DNA of 64,000 bases from a phage. The translations under genes and the position numbers were made by a program. The first letter of the stretch is position 1. Every line of letters starts with the position of its first letter. Where the stretch lies: the sequence record PQ724393.1; one strand, given 5' to 3'. Below the pieces are notes generated by a model. It was not told the DNA's origin. It was given only the letters and a program-made list of their open reading frames with translations, and did not search any database. Shown here one piece after another: positions 1,706-36,692 of the stretch.

Positions 1706-3961
1706 TTAAAGCTTACAAGCTGCACAATCGTCGGCTTTAGGAGTTTCGATTTCGTAATCGTCTGTACCAGAGCCATCACGGGTATTGTGGTAGTAAAAAT
1801 TCTTGAGCCCATAATACCATCCGTACAGCAGGTCATCAAGCATTACGGACATCGGAACTTTTCCTTTCTCATAGTTCTGAGGGTCGTAATACGTATTCGC
1901 TGACGCCGATTGGCAAACCCATTTCAACATAATTGCTACTTGGGTAAGATAAGGTTTATTACCTTTCTTAGCGAGGCTCCAAGCGTAATCATAGAGGCCT
2001 TGGTTATGTTCTACATTAGGAACTACCTGACGGAAGTTACCTTCTTTAGATTCTTTAATACTTACCGGCCCACGCGGAGGTTCGATACCGTTGGTAGAGT
2101 TGGAAACTTGGCTGCTTGACTCGCATGGCATAAGTGCTGATAATGTGCTATTACGGATGCCATGTTTAGCCAGGTCTTCCCGCAACGACGACCAGTCACA
2201 AACATAGTTTGGGGCTGCGATTTGGTCAATCTTTTTATTGTACCAGTCGATAGGAAGCTCGCCTCGAGACCACTTAGTGTCTGAATAATACTCGCAAGGT
2301 CCTTTTTCTTCGGCCAACTTGATTGATGCTCGGATAAGTCCATATTGTAATCTCTCAAACAGTTCATGAGTTAAATCGTTTGCGTCTTCATAAGAAGCAA
2401 AGTTGCTTGCCAACCATGCAGCGTAGTTGGTAACACCTACACCCAAGTTACGACGTTTCTTAGCCTTCAAAGCTTCAGGAACAGGATAGCTTTGATAATC
2501 TAATAGGTTATCAAGTGCACGTACCTGTACTTCAGCGAGTTCGTTGATTTTGTCTTGGTCTTGCCAATCAAAGTTATCCAACACGAATGCAGACAGCGTA
2601 CACAATCCGATTTCAGCGTCCGGACTATTCACATCGGTAGTCGGGATAGCAATTTCACAACACAGGTTACTCTGGCGAATAGGAGCCTTTTCACGAATAA
2701 ATGGGGTGAAGTTGTTAGTGTTATCAACAAACTGAGGATAAATTCGTGCAGTGCCTGAACGTTCGGTCATAAACAATTCGAAGAGGTCGCGTGCTTTAAT
2801 ACGTTTCTTACGAATACTAGAGTCTTTTTCAGCCGCTTCATACAATTCACGGAAACGTTCTTGGTCTTCAAAATAAGAATAATAAAGCTCACCACCCATT
2901 TCATGAGGACTGAACAGCGTGATGTAATCATTTTTACCGAAACGTTCCATCATAAGGTCGTTCAACTGGATTCCGTAGTCCATATGGCGAATACGGTTCT
3001 CGTCGACACCTTTGTTGTTTTTCAGAACGAGCAGATTTTCAACTTCCAAATGCCAAATAGGATAATAAGCAGTAGCAGCGCCGCCACGGATTCCACCTTG
3101 TGAACATGATTTAACAGCAGTCTGGAAATGTTTCCAGAATGGAATAACGCCTGTATGTTTGACTTCACCCATGCCAATACGAGAACCTTCAGCACGAATC
3201 ATACCAACGTTGATACCAATACCTGCACGTTTAGAAATGTATTCAATTATTGAGTTAGCAGTTTTGTTAATAGATTTCAGTGAGTCGCCTGCTTCAATAA
3301 CCACACAAGAACTAAATTGACGGGTTGGTGTACGTGCCCCAGCCATAATAGGAGTTGGTAATGAAACCTGACGGGTACTTACAGCATCATAAAAACGAAT
3401 AATATGGGCTAAACGGTTCCCTGGCTCGTCTTGGTGTAAGGCCATGCCAATACACATGATAGCGAACTGAGGGGTTTCATAGATTTTACCGGTTGTTTTA
3501 TCTTTAACCAGATATTTCTCTTTAAGCTGCATTGCGCCAGCGTAAGTCAATTCAAAGTCACGTTCATGCTTGATATGAGATTCTAAGAAAGTAATTTCTT
3601 CTGCAGAATATCGAGACAGCAATTCTGGGTCATATTTACCTTCGTTAACACAATAGGAAATATGGTCAATAAAACTACGCGGTTCAAACTGGCCATAAAC
3701 TTCTTTACGCAGGGCAAACATCAATTGCTTTGCAGCAACATACTGATAATCAGGCTCTTCAACCGAGATAAGGTTGGCCGCGACCTTAACAGTCAAATTC
3801 TGGATATCTTTGGTAGTCATACCATCACGAAGGTGGGATTTGATTTCTTCGTATAATTCGTAGGGATCGATTTGGGTTCCTTCACAACCCCAAGTCAGAA
3901 CTTTAATAATTTTTTGTGCGTCAAAATCTTGGGATACACCACTACTCTTTTGTACTTGCAT
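1706..3961 (-). CDS. nrdA: Ribonucleotide reductase alpha subunit
   Basis: 751 aa ORF, class Ia RNR large subunit with C-terminal CxxC tail; synteny with nrdB/td. Confidence 0.9.
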   Translation of the reverse strand: MQVQKSSGVSQDFDAQKIIKVLTWGCEGTQIDPYELYEEIKSHLRDGMTTKDIQNLTVKVAANLISVEEPDYQYVAAKQLMFALRKEVYGQFEPRSFIDHISYCVNEGKYDPELLSRYSAEEITFLESHIKHERDFELTYAGAMQLKEKYLVKDKTTGKIYETPQFAIMCIGMALHQDEPGNRLAHIIRFYDAVSTRQVSLPTPIMAGARTPTRQFSSCVVIEAGDSLKSINKTANSIIEYISKRAGIGINVGMIRAEGSRIGMGEVKHTGVIPFWKHFQTAVKSCSQGGIRGGAATAYYPIWHLEVENLLVLKNNKGVDENRIRHMDYGIQLNDLMMERFGKNDYITLFSPHEMGGELYYSYFEDQERFRELYEAAEKDSSIRKKRIKARDLFELFMTERSGTARIYPQFVDNTNNFTPFIREKAPIRQSNLCCEIAIPTTDVNSPDAEIGLCTLSAFVLDNFDWQDQDKINELAEVQVRALDNLLDYQSYPVPEALKAKKRRNLGVGVTNYAAWLASNFASYEDANDLTHELFERLQYGLIRASIKLAEEKGPCEYYSDTKWSRGELPIDWYNKKIDQIAAPNYVCDWSSLREDLAKHGIRNSTLSALMPCESSSQVSNSTNGIEPPRGPVSIKESKEGNFRQVVPNVEHNQGLYDYAWSLAKKGNKPYLTQVAIMLKWVCQSASANTYYDPQNYEKGKVPMSVMLDDLLYGWYYGLKNFYYHNTRDGSGTDDYEIETPKADDCAACKL

Positions 3962-4089
3962 AATTTCCTCAATATGTTAGGTTCTACATCTATAATAACA
4001 TAGAACCTGTTAAGCATGGACTGATATTTATAGAATGAAATTCAGTCCGACCATAATAACCAAAAACAGAGTACAGATTATTTGAATTT

Positions 4090-5744
<1,655 letters not shown>

Positions 5745-24224: not shown

Positions 24225-24857
24225 TTAAATTGCGTTGGTTACGGTTTTGATAACTTCAGATGATACGTTTTGGAAGTCGATATAAGTATTCTTACCACCA
24301 GTCTTAATCTTAACATCAAGGTTCAAGGAAGTAAACACTTGTTTTTCTTTATCAGTCATATTATAACCGAAGATACGCATCATTCCATCACGACGGACTT
24401 CGATTTGACGAATACCATTGGTGCGTTTAGCGAATCGAACTTCAAGGTTGCTACGGTTTTCAGCAATTTCACGAATCTCGATACGGTCTTCCAACAAAGA
24501 TTTAACTTCATCAGCCAATACCACCATTTCAGGAGTAACACCACGTGAGCTACGCGTTTTACGTTTTTCCAACATCTCTGGAGCATTTTCAGAAGCGAAC
24601 AGGTCGGCAGCTTTTTGAACTAGGTCCATTGCTTCACCTGTAGCCACCAGTCCATCACCAGATTTTTCGATGAATCCTTTCTTAATCAATACACCGATGT
24701 TAGAGTTAACTACCGCAGCACTAAATTGCTCACTCAGGGCTTCACGGACTTCGCCTGAAGTGATGAAGTTATTCTTGATGATATGTACTAAGATAGAAGC
24801 GGTTTTTTCATTCAGGACGTCTTCAGAAGCTTTGATGATGTAAGTAATTTTAGACAT
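24225..24857 (-). CDS. motA: Middle transcription activator MotA
   Basis: 210 aa; MSKITYIIKAS...VNSNIGVLIKKGFIEKSGDGL...RTNGIR...MRIFGY resembles T4 MotA. Confidence 0.8.
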   Translation of the reverse strand: MSKITYIIKASEDVLNEKTASILVHIIKNNFITSGEVREALSEQFSAAVVNSNIGVLIKKGFIEKSGDGLVATGEAMDLVQKAADLFASENAPEMLEKRKTRSSRGVTPEMVVLADEVKSLLEDRIEIREIAENRSNLEVRFAKRTNGIRQIEVRRDGMMRIFGYNMTDKEKQVFTSLNLDVKIKTGGKNTYIDFQNVSSEVIKTVTNAI

Positions 24858-24889
24858 TTTGTATCTCCGATAACCATTTATTTGATAGG

Positions 24890-24921
24890 TCTATAGTATC
24901 ACGTTTAAAGCAGAAGTAAAC
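24890..24921 (-). promoter_or_regulatory. T4-type early promoter upstream of motA
   Basis: GTTTAC (24916-24921) plus TGATACTATAGACCTATCAAAT block. Confidence 0.55.
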
Positions 24922-24944
24922 ACCTTTTTGCACTAAACCAAAAA

Positions 24945-24962
24945 AGGAACCCTAAGGTTCCT
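24945..24962 (-). terminator. Intrinsic terminator AGGAACC-UUAG-GGUUCCU + U5
   Basis: Stem-loop followed by U-run on the minus-strand transcript. Confidence 0.55.
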
Positions 24963-25066
24963 TACTTTTTAAAGTGGGCTGCTATTAAACCTATAGCTAA
25001 GCCTGTCGCCAGGCCTAGGATAACAGCAAAGATACAGAGTAACAAGAACTCGACTCCAAGGCTCAT
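24962..25066 (-). CDS. Small hydrophobic membrane peptide, 34 aa
   Basis: Hand-translated ORF with ATGA overlap to gene 52 stop. Confidence 0.3.
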   Translation of the reverse strand: MSLGVEFLLLCIFAVILGLATGLAIGLIAAHFKK

Positions 25067-26442
25067 AGAGCCTCCAAATCTTTAACATACTCGGTTACAA
25101 CATCAGTGGTTTTCCAATATTGATGCTCTTCTTTCTTAGCCTTGGCTTCTAAGGCCAATTTCTTAGCTTCATCTGATGTGATATGGAAAATGTTCATGGC
25201 TACTAGTTTATCAGCATACTCGCCGTAGACTTTATTACTAGCCAATTCTTCGGTTAAAACCTTACGAGTCTTACCTTGGATAACCACTACGCCATCAATA
25301 ACATCTTTGATAAATGTGGCTTTAGCCAATGCCAGTTTGAAAGCTTCTTCAGTTTCGATGATTTTACCATCAATACGTTTCTGTACAAAGGTCTTACGGA
25401 CCTCAACGAAATCACGAATCAGTTCAACTGCATCTTCGTAAACCTTAAGTTTACCTTTCTCATTAATGACAGTCAGGTTTTGTGAACGGCGTTCGATTAA
25501 CCCGAAGTCCTTCATGATTTTTTCATGCTTCTTGTTTTCTTCGGTAGGCAATTCATATTCTTTACGAATCTTAACCTTGAAGCCGAAACCGTTCTCGTCA
25601 CAGTCATCGTCATACGTGATATACCCTTTGTCTTCTAAAGGGTCTAATACCTTGGCCACGTACGTTTCACGATCATATTTGTATGGGATTTCCGTGATAT
25701 GCATTTGGGTTCGAGATGTGAACTTATAGGTCCCACGAATCTCATAACTACCTGGTTCAGTCTCAACAACATCACCACGGAATTCAGGATAAGCCACTTT
25801 AGGCTTGGTTACACGTTTTTCCTGAAGAACTTGTAATACAGCTTTCTTAACAGAATCAAAACTATGAGGAAGAATATTAGTTGCATAACCAGTTGCAATA
25901 CCGGAAACGCCATTAAGAAGAACAGTAGGAATAATAGGCAGATAAAAAGCCGGTGGCTTATGTTCGACATCCGCATGAACCGGAGCATATTCTGTGTCCT
26001 TATAAACTTTTGCAAAGTTACTTCCAATACGAGCAAAAATATAACGAGAGGCCGCCGCCTTTTGAACCAAACGAGAACCAAAGTTACCCTGGCCATCCAA
26101 CAGTGGGAAGTTGTTGTTCCATGTGTTAGCCATCAAAGCCCCTGCTTCCTGAGCAGAACCTTCACCATGATGATATCCAAGGTCGGCTACGCCACCAGCG
26201 ATAGAAGCCAGTTTGTGGAATTTTTCTTTATTACCACGAGCCATATCAAGACAACGAGCAACTACAAAACGTTGTACAGGTTTAAAGCCGTCAATCATAT
26301 TTGGAATGGCACGGTTTTCGACAGTATACATTGCATAAGCCAATGCTTCGTTGTCGATAATACTTTTTAAGTCGCGAGGAGTAAAAGTATCGTCGTAAAC
26401 ATCTAAAGCCTGTTTAAAAAGGGTATCAATTACATCAGCCAT
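25063..26442 (-). CDS. 52: DNA topoisomerase II medium subunit gp52 (GyrA-like)
   Basis: 459 aa; GyrA N-terminal motifs (GFKPVQRFVV, active-site Tyr region). Confidence 0.85.
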   Translation of the reverse strand: MADVIDTLFKQALDVYDDTFTPRDLKSIIDNEALAYAMYTVENRAIPNMIDGFKPVQRFVVARCLDMARGNKEKFHKLASIAGGVADLGYHHGEGSAQEAGALMANTWNNNFPLLDGQGNFGSRLVQKAAASRYIFARIGSNFAKVYKDTEYAPVHADVEHKPPAFYLPIIPTVLLNGVSGIATGYATNILPHSFDSVKKAVLQVLQEKRVTKPKVAYPEFRGDVVETEPGSYEIRGTYKFTSRTQMHITEIPYKYDRETYVAKVLDPLEDKGYITYDDDCDENGFGFKVKIRKEYELPTEENKKHEKIMKDFGLIERRSQNLTVINEKGKLKVYEDAVELIRDFVEVRKTFVQKRIDGKIIETEEAFKLALAKATFIKDVIDGVVVIQGKTRKVLTEELASNKVYGEYADKLVAMNIFHITSDEAKKLALEAKAKKEEHQYWKTTDVVTEYVKDLEAL

Positions 26443-26446
26443 AATT

Positions 26447-26587
26447 TTACCATACTAGTGAATGAATAGCCATAATAACATCGGAAATAAAAAGCACAAC
26501 TTGGATAAGTCCGAACATTACTCCATAATACAGCGCTACTAATAAAGCAGCAAGGACTAACGAGTAGCCCAGGATTTGTTTAATCAT
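26447..26587 (-). CDS. Small hydrophobic membrane peptide, 46 aa (T4 ac position)
   Basis: Hand-translated; 5 nt upstream of gene 52. Confidence 0.3.
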   Translation of the reverse strand: MIKQILGYSLVLAALLVALYYGVMFGLIQVVLFISDVIMAIHSLVW

Positions 26588-26748
26588 TTCTTGACCAAGG
26601 CTTCCAGAAATTTAACGATTGCATCAATTACGAACCAAGTGCAAATAAATCCAACAGCGAAAGGACCTGGAACCCACACACCAGCAGCAAAAAGGGTTAC
26701 CCACACAATAACAATCACGAGCCAGATAAAAGTATAAATCGGTAGCAT
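26584..26748 (-). CDS. Small hydrophobic membrane peptide, 54 aa
   Basis: Hand-translated; ATGA overlap with next ORF. Confidence 0.3.
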   Translation of the reverse strand: MLPIYTFIWLVIVIVWVTLFAAGVWVPGPFAVGFICTWFVIDAIVKFLEALVKK

Positions 26749-26835
26749 ATTTTCCTCATTAGCGTCCGAAGACGCCTTTAGTTTTAAGATTGTTACGATA
26801 GAACTGCATCACATGTTCGTTATGGAAATTACTCA

Positions 26836-27285
26836 TTAGTAAGCCTGCAGAACGAATTTGAAGTTATCAGCCAACATACGGTTCATTTCTTCCAGGGTCT
26901 GGAGATCTGAACTATGGTTGCGAGTGAAAGCCATTGCAATTTGTCCTTTACCAAAACCTGTAGTCAGAGGTTTCATTTTAGAAGCCGGTACATAAAGAAC
27001 TTCATACAGGATACTGTTAGTTTTCATGGTACGGTTGGCTTGAGAACGAGCTGAACGAATATTCTTAAGAACACCATCCAGACCTTGTCCTGAACGCTGA
27101 TTACCTACATAGAAGCGAGCAGCTACGATGCGGTTTTCGCCAACACCTTTAACAAAGAAATAGAAGCCTGGCTGGGCAGAGATTTCTTTAGAAGGCTTAC
27201 CGTTTTGGTATTCACCATTCTTAACATAAGCAACAGTAGTAGCACCTGCAGACAGAACGTTACGGCGAGTCATATAAGTATTCAT
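26836..27285 (-). CDS. ndd: Nucleoid disruption protein Ndd
   Basis: 149 aa, T4 Ndd-like size and position; C-terminus [16 protein letters not shown] recalled as Ndd-like. Confidence 0.5.
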
Positions 27286-27362
27286 ATCAATTTCCTCAGT
27301 AGATTAATGTTTTGTTATCCAGTCAACGAGAACCATTATAACATGATTCTCGAGGTTGTAAA

Positions 27363-27731
27363 CTATTTTTGTAGCTGTTCTAAAATAAATCCGCTCGTAT
27401 AAAAGGAAGCATTATAAACCTTATTCAGTGGGTGCAAAGCACGTCCGTATGTATCACGTAGTTCTTTGATAACATTTTCATAGCTCACATAGTAAGCACT
27501 ACGATAGTCCGGGTCCATGCTCATACGGAATTTGATGAACCGATAAAAGCCTGTTTCCGGATCTTGAACGAAAACGAAATCCGCGCTTGCCATAGTTTTT
27601 GGATTTACGCCTGGAATCATACTTTGATTGAATGATACCGTTGCCTCCTGAAGGCTGAGTTGTTTAAAGAACATAACTTTAGAGTTACCAAAAAATACTT
27701 TAGACATGATATTTTCCTTATTCAGCGTCAA
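27363..27731 (-). CDS. Hypothetical protein
   Basis: 122 aa ORF. Confidence 0.45.
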   Translation of the reverse strand: MTLNKENIMSKVFFGNSKVMFFKQLSLQEATVSFNQSMIPGVNPKTMASADFVFVQDPETGFYRFIKFRMSMDPDYRSAYYVSYENVIKELRDTYGRALHPLNKVYNASFYTSGFILEQLQK

Positions 27732-27930
27732 CAGAAATAGCCATCAGTTCATCAACGGTAAGACATTGTACACTTGGCCCTACACAAAAGCGCTTAGTTG
27801 AATCATAGAGGTCTGTAGCATTTACAGGCTGCAATTCAGTACCAACTTGCAAAGGAGAAATGCGAATCAGTTGTTGGCCGTTATGTAATACAAAGCTCTC
27901 ACCAACTGCGACATCTTTAAAAAGTTTCAT
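27718..27930 (-). CDS. Hypothetical protein, 70 aa (start at MKLFKD; track ORF to 27972)
   Basis: SD GAGGAAAA before internal ATG. Confidence 0.4.
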   Translation of the reverse strand: MKLFKDVAVGESFVLHNGQQLIRISPLQVGTELQPVNATDLYDSTKRFCVGPSVQCLTVDELMAISVDAE

Positions 27931-28074
27931 AATATTTTCCTCAGAAGTTAAAGAATACACGTACATGGTCAATCATAAAAACGATTGGGAAAATGCTCAA
28001 TACTACTAACAACACAAACATGTTCCAAATTGCTTTAAGTAAGTTTTTCATAATCATCTCCATTAGTTGATAGG

Positions 28075-28106
28075 TCTATAATATCATGTCTAATGGAGAT
28101 GTAAAC
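28075..28106 (-). promoter_or_regulatory. T4-type early promoter
   Basis: GTTTAC (28101-28106) plus TGATATTATAGACCTATCAACT block. Confidence 0.5.
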
Positions 28107-28196
28107 TGATTTATGCCAATTTCCACAACAATAAACTAAAACATACACAAATCACCGGGATACAGGTCAACCAAATAAGGCACCACATTTTGCTGC

Positions 28197-28454
28197 TCAT
28201 AATTCCACCTCAATGATTTCAATCTTCTTGGCTTTGATAGCTTTCTTCAAATCCGGGTAAACTTGAGTACAGTAAGAATTATTCAACTCGCCATTCACCA
28301 AACGTTGAATCTCTTCATGGGTGGTCAGATAAGGTTGGTCCGTCTCATATTTAGATAAATCCAGTCCGGTAATGCAAAAATCTTCTCCATCCGAAAAGGT
28401 TGAAAACGATACAAACTCACGGGTAATTTTATGTTTAGCGTAATAGAATTTCAT
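28197..28454 (-). CDS. Hypothetical protein
   Basis: 85 aa, SD GAGGAGAAA upstream. Confidence 0.45.
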   Translation of the reverse strand: MKFYYAKHKITREFVSFSTFSDGEDFCITGLDLSKYETDQPYLTTHEEIQRLVNGELNNSYCTQVYPDLKKAIKAKKIEIIEVEL

Positions 28455-36317: not shown

Positions 36318-36549
36318 TGTAAGTTTCCTTCCAGAAGTCGGTGCCTTCAGCAGTGATTTCACGGAACACTGCGTAGATAGGATTTTTATCACCTTGATTT
36401 TCATATACATAAACCGACGATAAATGAGAAAACGTATCAGAATGTTCCTTTTGAACCACGATTAAATCAGGGTTGAACAAAACATCTTCAAATTCTTCAC
36501 GAGTCGAGTTTGCAGTGATTTTAGTAGTCATTTTAAATCTCCTTAACAA
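36310..36549 (-). CDS. Hypothetical protein
   Basis: 79 aa ORF, SD AAGGAG upstream. Confidence 0.4.
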   Translation of the reverse strand: MLRRFKMTTKITANSTREEFEDVLFNPDLIVVQKEHSDTFSHLSSVYVYENQGDKNPIYAVFREITAEGTDFWKETYNA

Positions 36550-36692
36550 GCTTTAATTAAAAGATACAGACAGATAACGATAACTGCAATCATAATATAA
36601 GGTGCAAACATTTTTATTCTCCATTTCACTCATTTGTTTTGATAGGGTAATCTTATCACTACCCTACCGTATTGTATACTGTTTTTTAAACT

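Follow-up and report, generated by a model that had tools for sequence, protein, structure and literature searches.

The three tiny hydrophobic ORFs that surround gene 52 in the phage sequence record PQ724393.1 are, on the evidence of their sequences, genuine conserved protein-coding genes under purifying selection, and the peptides that they encode probably modulate the host from its inner membrane as accessory factors, a role proposed from models. The stretch analyzed, referred to here as the window, comprises 64,000 nucleotides of a Dhakavirus, a JS98-like T4-type coliphage. The block that contains the three ORFs is quite likely the Dhakavirus counterpart of the T4 early arrangement ndd-stp-(ac slot)-52.1-52-(motA.1 slot). 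The feature itself is ordinary, having been annotated for years in T4 and JS98-type genomes, and all of it falls within existing Pfam or PHROG families.

Layout and identity of the gene block

The 34-, 46-, and 54-aa ORFs proposed in an earlier, sequence-only reading of the window were recovered at exactly the same coordinates on the minus strand, and each begins with ATG in the ORF listing with translations (Table 1). From ndd to the 34-aa ORF (p34), the block forms one co-directional, tightly packed, translationally coupled early operon, in which genes are joined by 1-4-nt overlaps and have Shine-Dalgarno sites of their own. The operon likely starts at the promoter-like site in the spacer upstream of ndd, which gave 11/12 consensus matches and was the best site in the scanned region. 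The order of genes is syntenic with T4 motA–motA.1–52–52.1–ac–stp–ndd, and identities to T4 were 93% for gp52.1, 81% for gp52, 62% for Ndd, and 52% for MotA; Ndd was 87-93% identical to Dhakavirus Ndd. Locus comparisons were performed with 54 loci, consisting of 53 fetched loci and the window. No homologue of ac, D57, or motA.1 was found anywhere in the 64-kb window, and searches against Rfam, NCBIfam, and the PADLOC defence models returned zero matches.

Table 1. Features of the block and of its surroundings, in window coordinates
Feature	Position	Strand	Basis
motA, downstream neighbour	24225..24857	-	homology, synteny
Early-promoter-like site ahead of motA, TTTACT-16-TACTAT with TG	24893..24920	-	hand reading
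Intrinsic-terminator-like hairpin, 8-bp stem AAGGAACC/GGTTCCTT, then T run	24944..24963	-	scan
p34, 34-aa single-pass peptide with G18xxxG22xxxG26 (phrog_16377), T4 motA.1 slot	24962..25066	-	PHROG profile
Gene 52, topoisomerase II medium subunit	25063..26442	-	homology, synteny
52.1, 46 aa (DUF7396/PF24129, phrog_3595)	26447..26587	-	Pfam and PHROG profiles, T4 identity
famB, 54-aa two-helix hairpin peptide (phrog_9347), T4 ac slot, VR5-type allele	26584..26748	-	PHROG profile
stp, 25 aa	26759-26836	-	PF08133, phrog_6763, T4 identity
Nucleoid disruption protein gene ndd, which opens the block	26836..27285	-	homology
Sigma-70/early-type promoter-like site, TTTACA-16-TATAAT with TG	27335..27362	-	consensus scan
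Ndd.4 homologue, 40 aa	27941..28063	-	phrog_3098 (E=4e-21); named ndd.4 in JS10 and KIT01
Ndd.6 homologue, 29-aa hydrophobic peptide	28111..28200	-	phrog_8851 (E=4e-16)
Candidate 22-codon hydrophobic ORF (MFAPYIMIAVIVICLYLLIKAC), unannotated	36543..36611	-	GGAG Shine-Dalgarno

The sequence-only reading had placed its ORFs in the region where T4 carries ac and stp. The region is indeed homologous by synteny, but ac and stp are not among the three ORFs. The real stp, which was missing from the ORFs of that reading, lies between ndd and the famB gene and has one base in common with the ndd stop codon (TAATG), a junction also present in T4. Its product matched PF08133, the anticodon nuclease activator family, with 72.1 bits (cut-off 25) and phrog_6763 with E=1.6e-20; it is hydrophilic and identical to T4 Stp in 25/25 residues, differing in that the C-terminal Gln26 of T4 Stp is missing. 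Nucleotide identity to T4 stp was 93-97%, and the gene is annotated under that name in JS10 and KIT01. T4 Stp is annotated as a restriction/anticodon-nuclease effector, and the window protein is assumed from its identity to T4 Stp to activate PrrC and to counteract EcoprrI restriction. Tight coupling of the ORFs to both gene 52 and ndd had also been claimed; the ATGA overlap and the 4-nt gap at gene 52 bear out the first part, whereas stp intervenes between the 54-aa ORF and ndd. Further peptides of this type had been pointed out at about 27940-28050, where the Ndd.4 homologue is located, and at about 36540-36612, which corresponds to the candidate 22-codon ORF. The latter lies inside an insert of ~87 nt in the cef-motB spacer; it matched no family and offered no informative variation.

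The three hydrophobic peptide genes

Each of the three ORFs had a GRAVY of 1.7-1.8, and hydropathy revealed hydrophobic stretches sufficient for 1-2 membrane spans, which together with the helices in the AF2 models agrees with their earlier description as single- or double-TM peptides. PHROG profile matches with E values of 2e-21 (p34), 2e-24 (gp52.1), and 2e-24 (famB) were beyond chance. Substitutions in the ORFs' own frames were mostly synonymous, unlike in the other five frames, and dN/dS was ~0-0.3 for p34, gp52.1, and famB type 2. These values bear on the possibility that translation of the ORFs serves only to regulate, by coupling or spacing, the flow of ribosomes into gene 52 and its neighbours, or that the DNA is kept for a regulatory RNA or promoter, the peptides being functionless. 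Overlaps of 1-4 nt are typical of translational coupling, and the T4 counterparts were undetected in shotgun proteomics (Class_P = NA; PMC9697503, Table S2), so that translation is deduced from evolution; non-detection is, however, expected because the peptides are tiny and hydrophobic. Against such a device, third-position changes dominate (dN/dS 0-0.3 for p34, gp52.1, and famB type 2), Rfam was without a match, and p34, which comes after gene 52 and stops at the terminator, is unable to couple into anything. The explanation is considered highly improbable, and it is largely refuted because the substitution pattern shows selection at the amino-acid level.

The 46-aa ORF was identical to T4 gp52.1 in 43/46 residues, with only three conservative substitutions, and shares with it the equal length, the slot directly upstream of gene 52, and an overlapping ATGA junction with the small gene ahead of it. 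It matched Pfam DUF7396 over its full length (1-46; 80.3 bits, cut-off 27) and phrog_3595 with E=1.9e-24. Relative to T4, 14 codon differences were synonymous and 3 were non-synonymous, and dN/dS was 0.06-0.35. The stop codon of 52.1 lies 4 nt ahead of the gene 52 ATG on the same strand; the gene immediately precedes gene 52 in 41 of the 54 loci, as it does in T4. Matches to gp52.1 were obtained by tblastn in 730 phage records, and its C-terminal half was invariant across genera. The AF2 model consisted of a single 44-residue helix (pLDDT 96), which exceeds a simple single span, and a PDB sequence search with gp52.1 gave no relative.

The 34-aa ORF matched phrog_16377 (E=2.3e-21) and displays the length of 34 aa and the invariant residues of that family (M1, S2, E6, C11, A14, G18, I25, and G26). 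Its start codon and the stop codon of gene 52 form the overlap ATGA (25063-25066), with GGAGG 4 nt upstream. Among 11 Dhakaviruses, 12 variable codons were synonymous-only versus 3 that were amino-acid-changing, second-position changes numbered 0, and dN/dS was 0-0.2. The protein was conserved at >=97% identity in 53 phage records and was found solely in Dhakavirus and Gaprivervirus, the glycine zipper being kept in the Gaprivervirus homologues; an exhaustive HMMER search returned one representative cluster only. In T4 this slot is occupied by MotA.1, which is likewise small, hydrophobic, and glycine-rich, starts with MS, and overlaps the gene 52 stop by ATGA (motA.1 2731-2880 and gene 52 2877-4205 in locus L004), but which has 49 aa in place of the 34 aa and one span of p34. 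The candidate identity of p34 as a diverged MotA.1 was rejected, with an hhalign probability of 0.5% and membership in different families (phrog_16377 versus phrog_3487).

The positions of gp52.1 and p34 on either side of gene 52 could also be explained if gp52.1 and p34/MotA.1 were topoisomerase partners that tether gp52 to the inner membrane and, by way of gp52, the gp39/52/60 enzyme or the replication complex; the flanking peptides would then be coupled to gene 52 because they partner the topoisomerase. The immediate upstream position of 52.1 in most loci, its invariant C-terminal half, a conservation relative to T4 that is higher than that of gp52, Ndd, or MotA, and the ATGA overlap by which both p34 and T4 MotA.1 begin in the gene 52 stop all count in favor of such a tether. 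In addition, T4 gp39 and gp52 are membrane-associated according to older biochemical reports. A tether is nevertheless unlikely: the slot downstream of gene 52 was occupied by at least 5 unrelated peptide families and was empty in many phages, and 52.1 was absent where gp52 is more diverged; in one such locus (L043), ndd and gene 52 are just 70 nt apart and no ORF separates them. Moreover, T4 stays viable, with ~50% burst, when deletions through denB/rIIB eliminate or shorten 52.1 (PMC6071114; PMC9712115), and deletion viability was the only information on the function of 52.1, motA.1, or DUF7396 found in the literature.

The 54-aa ORF was designated famB and matched a single PHROG, phrog_9347 (E=1.5e-24). 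Its stop codon overlaps the 52.1 ATG as ATGA (26584-26587), and GAGGA is located 4 nt ahead of its own ATG. Alignments defined a family of ~52-55 aa with a conserved G23 and P27 turn, both of which are present in the window peptide, and the AF2 model was a helical hairpin (H3-21 and H29-53; pLDDT 85). Against Gaprivervirus alleles, dN/dS was ~0.25; among type-1 alleles within Dhakavirus it was 0.3-1.2 with few substitutions, which points to weaker constraint on famB. A profile search recovered 28 protein clusters versus two in a single-sequence search with the 54-aa peptide; all of the source-named clusters came from phages of Escherichia or Klebsiella, and several were located on contigs of ~170 kb. 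A PDB sequence search with famB gave noise only (E >= 0.09), and Foldseek comparison of the model with the PDB gave 0 hits.

T4 Ac (51 aa, phrog_2501) resembles famB in its small size and its two hydrophobic segments. Its slot in T4, between stp and 52.1, is the one that famB fills in the window, and the start and stop junction sequences are shared. Position in this slot is not decisive for Ac identity because famB and Ac co-occur elsewhere, the two genes being found side by side in JS98, IME281, NC-G, and the phage of locus L016. There is no detectable sequence relationship between them, and where famB has a conserved G-x-W-x-P turn Ac has a (T)GE(T/A)(S/T)V.SQ motif. famB and Ac had been merged when blastp was used for permissive single-linkage clustering with composition correction off, but the candidate identity of famB as a diverged Ac was rejected because the hhalign probability was 0.15%, the PHROGs differ, and some genomes carry both genes. 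A tblastn search of the whole window with three Ac variants gave E >= 0.2 and no ac homologue.

Exchange of alleles and cassettes around gene 52

The window famB gene had 98% nucleotide identity to that of VR5 and only ~45% to that of fDHCT2, and the flanking 52.1 and gene 52 were ~100% identical to fDHCT2. Judged from these nucleotide comparisons, the gene is a VR5-type allele swapped ORF-precisely between fDHCT2-like flanks, and the junctions of the ac-slot swap were conserved even with T4. Two deeply diverged famB alleles, with ~30% protein identity, occur within one genus. The ndd-52 interval as a whole has a mosaic make-up, in which five small genes (D57, Stp, Ac, famB, and 52.1) are interchangeable. 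The ac slot may be viewed as an exchangeable cassette; in the window it contains a famB allele of the rare VR5 type, and ac is absent.

Such exchange could reflect conflict, with the peptides serving as weapons for counter-defence against membrane-based abortive infection or for superinfection exclusion and with famB evolving fast and being often exchanged. The divergent alleles, the precise swap between near-identical flanks, the mosaic interval, the documented effector role of the neighbour Stp, and the PeSL-mediated shuffling of the nearby ndd.4/.5 described previously (PMC4122927) agree with this possibility. It is regarded as quite improbable, since the PADLOC defence models were unmatched, a known target exists for 0 family members, and shuffling of alleles is also compatible with neutral exchange of modules in a hyperplastic region. 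Conflict overlaps the preferred explanation, accessory modulation of the host, and mainly narrows the target. Little probability was also given to a composite scheme in which the stp–52.1 slot is hot-swappable, phrog_9347 peptides are alternatives to Ac on a host inner-membrane machine, and gp52.1 is a membrane partner of topoisomerase or replication. In that scheme, famB would act on an efflux pump or on some other complex, and ORF-precise exchange between genera would be under host-driven selection.

PeSLs, which combine an early promoter with a stem-loop, are associated with cassette shuffling in the hyperplastic regions of T4-like phages (Arbiol 2010; Comeau 2014, PMC4122927). The terminator-like hairpin, which begins within the p34 stop codon, and the TTTACT-16-TACTAT site after p34 together resemble a PeSL in sequence. 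The site gave 8/12 matches, was read by hand, and was under the scan threshold; it fits the PeSL consensus TTTACW...TAYWAT (PMC4122927). Relatives carried insertions of 71-75-aa ORFs exactly at the hairpin/promoter-like site, but the famB/ac swap differs in being bounded by short conserved coding junctions and not by PeSLs.

Proposed role in infection

The proposals made here on insertion into the membrane, on topology, and on host targets derive from hydropathy and AF2 monomer models. The three peptides would be made in the first minutes of infection and inserted into the host inner membrane; in T4, motA.1, 52.1, ac, stp, and ndd.2-ndd.6 all belong to the early transcript class (PMC9697503, Table S2). 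p34 would probably adopt an N-out/C-in topology, with HFKK at its C-terminus and a helix-packing face formed by GxxxGxxxG; gp52.1 would probably have its basic N-terminus inside the cell, followed by the invariant YYG...QVVLFISD core; and famB would probably be N-in/C-in, with its conserved turn and a charged C-terminal tail. Once inserted, they may bind host inner-membrane proteins through helix-helix contacts or perturb the bilayer, the mode of action currently proposed for T4 Ac on AcrAB-TolC (bioRxiv 10.1101/2025.06.30.662393; PMC13250531). By this account, the peptides would be accessory tuners of the host envelope that are dispensable on laboratory hosts; the equivalent T4 genes can be dispensed with in laboratory culture. 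Small membrane proteins of the AcrZ type in E. coli have <=50 aa, are essentially one transmembrane helix, and bind large transporters. As an analogy only, a tiny transmembrane-helix peptide that binds a large membrane protein resembles the mode proposed for T4 Ac; for the window peptides, a sequence or structural match was neither found nor claimed. An effect on the host envelope or restriction is documented for T4 Ac and Stp only and would be an inference for the three peptides.

Beyond correct annotation, the value of these results is modest. They show that gene callers often skip such ORFs: p34 is unannotated in JS10, IME08, NC-G, and others, and famB and 52.1 are unannotated in fDHCT2. 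They also separate the ac-slot peptide from Ac, and since the window phage is without ac, it is predicted to lack the Ac-dependent acriflavine sensitivity of T4. The clean ORF-precise allele swap could guide experiments on uncharacterised early membrane peptides.

Gene content of the gene 52 region

Positions 24800-28200 of the window were compared with phage records by megablast, which gave 729 matches, the best to Escherichia phage fDHCT2 (96%), followed by IME08, JS10, JS98, VR5, KIT01 and other Dhakavirus members of the Tevenvirinae. Based on the annotated genomes of JS10, fDHCT2, KIT01 and NC-G and on T4 itself, the minus-strand region was assigned to the T4 block motA – motA.1 – 52 – 52.1 – ac – stp – ndd – ndd.1…ndd.6 – denB, and the gene order in the same five phages bears out the homology to the T4 ac/stp region claimed in the sequence-only reading. 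The ORF listing returned the three small ORFs of that reading with identical ends, and their strong hydrophobicity was confirmed (GRAVY 1.7-1.8). They are real genes, already catalogued among the small membrane-protein genes of T4-type phages; p34, gp52.1, famB and stp are all protein-coding. No Rfam family was matched in the region.

Small ORFs of the gene 52 region and similar peptides in the window
Feature	Position	Strand	Description	Basis
p34	24962..25066	-	34 aa, MSLGVEFLLLCIFAVILGLATGLAIGLIAAHFKK	ORF listing
gp52.1	26447..26587	-	46 aa, MIKQILGYSLVLAALLVALYYGVMFGLIQVVLFISDVIMAIHSLVW	ORF listing
famB	26584..26748	-	54 aa, MLPIYTFIWLVIVIVWVTLFAAGVWVPGPFAVGFICTWFVIDAIVKFLEALVKK	ORF listing
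stp	26759..26836	-	25 codons, between famB and ndd	
Ndd.4 homologue	27941..28063	-		Homology
Ndd.6 homologue	28111..28200	-		Homology
22-aa hydrophobic ORF	36543..36611	-	GGAG 7 nt upstream; just past stem-loop	

The small ORFs had also been described as tightly coupled to gene 52 and ndd. Coupling to gene 52 is real: the p34 ATG, with GGAGG ahead of it, shares ATGA with the gene 52 stop, the famB stop and 52.1 ATG overlap as ATGA, and the 52.1 stop lies 4 nt from the gene 52 ATG. The 54-aa ORF does not directly abut ndd, however, since stp intervenes; famB has GAGGA ahead of its ATG, and the stp ORF has one base in common with the ndd stop. Similar peptides had been noted at two further places, of which that at about 27940-28050 is the Ndd.4 homologue and that at 36.5 kb is a candidate gene only, without a PHROG match. 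The latter sits in an insert of about 87 nt in the cef-motB spacer, which UP19 and MN04 share in nearly identical form and IME281 lacks, and it is annotated nowhere; the sole substitution observed is non-synonymous. Calling of such micro-ORFs is uneven, p34 being unannotated in JS10, IME08, NC-G and IME341, and famB, 52.1 and stp in fDHCT2. In the T4 record, Ndd.2, Ndd.5 and Ndd.6 are labelled 'outer membrane' and appear to be simple inner-membrane helices.

Identity and constraint of the four micro-proteins

By homology, the 46-aa ORF is gp52.1, with 43 of 46 residues identical to the T4 protein and matches to Pfam DUF7396 (80 bits, cut-off 27) and phrog_3595; tblastn located it in 730 phage records. 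Its codon differences from T4 are 14 synonymous and 3 non-synonymous, dN/dS across genera is 0.06-0.35, and Y20-D36 is essentially invariant in the alignment. The sequence has a basic N-terminus, one buried D36 in the core and W at the terminus. The AF2 model is a single 44-residue helix (pLDDT 96), and the peptide may be either one span plus an interfacial helix or a hairpin broken at YYG.

The 25-aa ORF overlooked by the sequence-only reading is Stp, as all 25 of its residues are those of T4 Stp and it matches PF08133 and phrog_6763; the same gene is labelled stp in the JS10 and KIT01 annotations. Its four variable codons are all synonymous. Together with the following Shine-Dalgarno sequence, stp is 93-97% identical to T4 at the nucleotide level, far above the adjacent upstream ndd (40-87%), which suggests a recent lateral exchange of this 25-codon gene; the gene after it is unrelated. 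Another Stp allele (…QWHRHNLKLTGVFGRP) is found in JS98, IME281 and NC-G.

In the ac slot, between stp and 52.1, famB matches phrog_9347, and T4 Ac matches phrog_2501. A diverged Ac was ruled out because several genomes carry famB and Ac next to each other and the profile-profile probability is 0.15%; their merger in a first blastp clustering without composition correction was taken as an artefact of hydrophobic composition. Searches of the whole 64-kb window by tblastn with three Ac variants, two D57 variants and MotA.1 did not find ac, D57 or motA.1 (E >= 0.2), and the window is thus considered to be without ac. The famB family (52-55 aa) is marked in alignments by a conserved G-x-W-x-P turn. 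At the protein level its two allele classes are no more than about 30% identical, and the nearest relatives of the window's class outside VR5 are ESCO47 (74%) and the Gaprivervirus alleles. Comparison of the window allele with those of Gaprivervirus gives a dN/dS of about 0.25; within the common Dhakavirus allele the value is 0.3-1.2, from a small number of changes, so that constraint there is weaker. The AF2 model (27 homologues, pLDDT 85.5) is a helical hairpin (H3-21, turn AGVWVPG, H29-53), and the position of the charges in the C-terminal tail (D42, K46, E49, K53 and K54) suggests a predicted N-in/C-in topology.

In the motA.1 slot, after gene 52, p34 matches phrog_16377 and MotA.1 matches phrog_3487; a relationship was ruled out by the separate PHROGs and an hhalign probability of 0.5%. 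With p34 as query, HMMER searched 1.84 billion representatives exhaustively and returned a single cluster. The slot holds p34 in Dhakavirus and Gaprivervirus, MotA.1 in T4 and a 175-kb group, and at least three more unrelated hydrophobic peptides in other groups, and is empty in many. Across 53 records, p34 keeps a protein identity of at least 97%. Among 11 Dhakavirus sequences, 17 nucleotide sites vary (13 at third and 0 at second codon positions), giving 12 codons with synonymous changes only and 3 with residue changes (dN/dS 0-0.2); four of the five other frames would have nearly all amino-acid changes, and the wobble-sharing antisense frame 9 synonymous versus 5. A single membrane span is predicted, with E6 close to the N-terminus, a C-terminal HFKK and the motif G18xxxG22xxxG26. 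Its outer glycines, G18 and G26, do not vary, and G22 is kept by 6 of 7 homologues, those of Gaprivervirus included; these glycines may form a classic helix-packing or oligomerisation face. The selection seen on the amino-acid sequences contradicts the alternative that the peptides are purely a 'coupling spacer'.

Mosaic architecture of the locus

For the window, five GenBank loci and 48 IMG/VR loci around gp52 homologues, the small ORFs on either side of gene 52 were listed, as far as ndd and motA. In the ndd-52 interval, five small genes recur in mosaic combinations, namely D57 (a 57-61-aa family), Stp, Ac (including a more distant Ac-like group), famB and gp52.1, the last always standing directly before 52.

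Order of small genes in the ndd-52 interval
Phage	Order
T4	Stp – Ac – 52.1
Window, fDHCT2, JS10, KIT01	Stp – famB – 52.1
JS98	D57 – Stp – Ac – famB – 52.1
IME281	Stp – Ac – famB – 52.1
NC-G	D57 – Stp – Ac – second, fused Stp ORF – famB – 52.1
VR5	D57 – famB – 52.1 (Stp absent)

From ndd to motA, identity of the window to fDHCT2 is 93-100%, save for two segments that match VR5. One is the famB gene (about 45% to fDHCT2, 98% to VR5), and from the alignments its swap is ORF-precise; the upstream junction (…GGACGCTAATGAGGAAAATATG) and that at the 52.1 start (AATGATTAA) are conserved even in T4, which has ac as its cassette. The other, mid-ndd at about 27145-26966, is 63-82% identical to fDHCT2, JS10 and QL01 and 93-100% to VR5, whereas the ndd ends are 93-100% identical to the former three; by this pattern it is a second recombination patch beside the famB swap.

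The second stp copy of NC-G is of T4 type and N-terminally fused (positions 3283-3390 and 3329-3562 of its locus), lies beside the JS98-type stp and ac, and looks like a scar of cassette insertion. In vB_EcoM_005 (locus positions 3301-3513), famB extends into a 70-aa ORF, 52.1 is absent and the gp52 match stops at residue 392, which points either to a deletion variant or to a faulty assembly of the record. The 5' end of gene 52 (26386-26442, minus strand) gives gp52 about 19 more N-terminal residues than in T4 (MADVIDTLFKQALDVYDDT…), in common with fDHCT2, JS10 and VR5. The gp52 match of JS98, QL01 and IME341 begins only at residue 20 of the window protein, nucleotide identity of QL01 in this stretch is 40-65%, and the annotated KIT01 gene is shorter (1329 versus 1380 nt).

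Likely expression unit and proposed function

The best minus-strand promoter-like site of the scanned region (27362..27335; TTTACA-16-TATAAT with TG) lies in the spacer upstream of ndd, and the best terminator-like hairpin (24963..24944; 8-bp stem, then a T run) begins within the p34 stop codon, so that a transcription unit P-ndd-stp-famB-52.1-52-p34-terminator is likely. Directly past the hairpin, TTTACT-16-TACTAT with TG (24920-24893; read by eye, scoring under the scan threshold) is followed by GGAG and the motA ATG. This putative promoter and the hairpin resemble in layout the PeSL, a composite of hairpin and early promoter (consensus TTTACW…TAYWAT) of T4-like hyperplastic regions (PMC4122927). 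The stretch from the p34 terminator to motA (24858-24961) is an insertion hotspot, in which different Dhakaviruses have unrelated 71-75-aa ORFs, as in locus L001 (5029-5256), VR5 (5089-5304) and IME341 (5032-5253); one of these ORFs is also present after motA.1 in T4-like contigs, and the window and fDHCT2 have no insert. In T4, transcripts of motA.1, 52.1, ac, stp and ndd.2-ndd.6 belong to the early class by RNA-seq, and their peptides all went undetected by mass spectrometry (PMC9697503, Table S2).

The peptides had no sequence or fold match in PDB and none in NCBIfam or PADLOC. Of the suggested role in host envelope and restriction, direct evidence concerns the T4 neighbours Stp and Ac and not the three ORFs. 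T4 Stp acts on EcoprrI and PrrC (T4 record annotation), and T4 Ac makes infection acriflavine-sensitive, a block of AcrAB-TolC having been proposed (bioRxiv 10.1101/2025.06.30.662393; PMC13250531). The T4 deletion saΔ9, which lacks 52.1, ac, stp, ndd, ndd.1-6 and denB, still yields about 50% of wild type but no longer shows the stimulation of phospholipid synthesis that infection induces (PMC6071114), and a re-created 3.25-kb GT7-type deletion, with 52.1 truncated and 12 genes removed, is viable (PMC9712115). It is possible that gp52.1 and p34 serve as a topoisomerase tether, but the viability of these deletions of the 52.1 region (PMC6071114; PMC9712115) and a downstream slot that is non-homologous or empty among phages argue against it. 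From the T4 neighbour functions and deletion viability, the peptides are most likely accessory early inner-membrane micro-proteins, dispensable in the laboratory, which would bind host membrane proteins or perturb the bilayer. For this block of T4-type phages, the useful corrections are that the window has no ac, that the 46-aa ORF is gp52.1, that stp is present, and that the ac and motA.1 slots are filled by other families.
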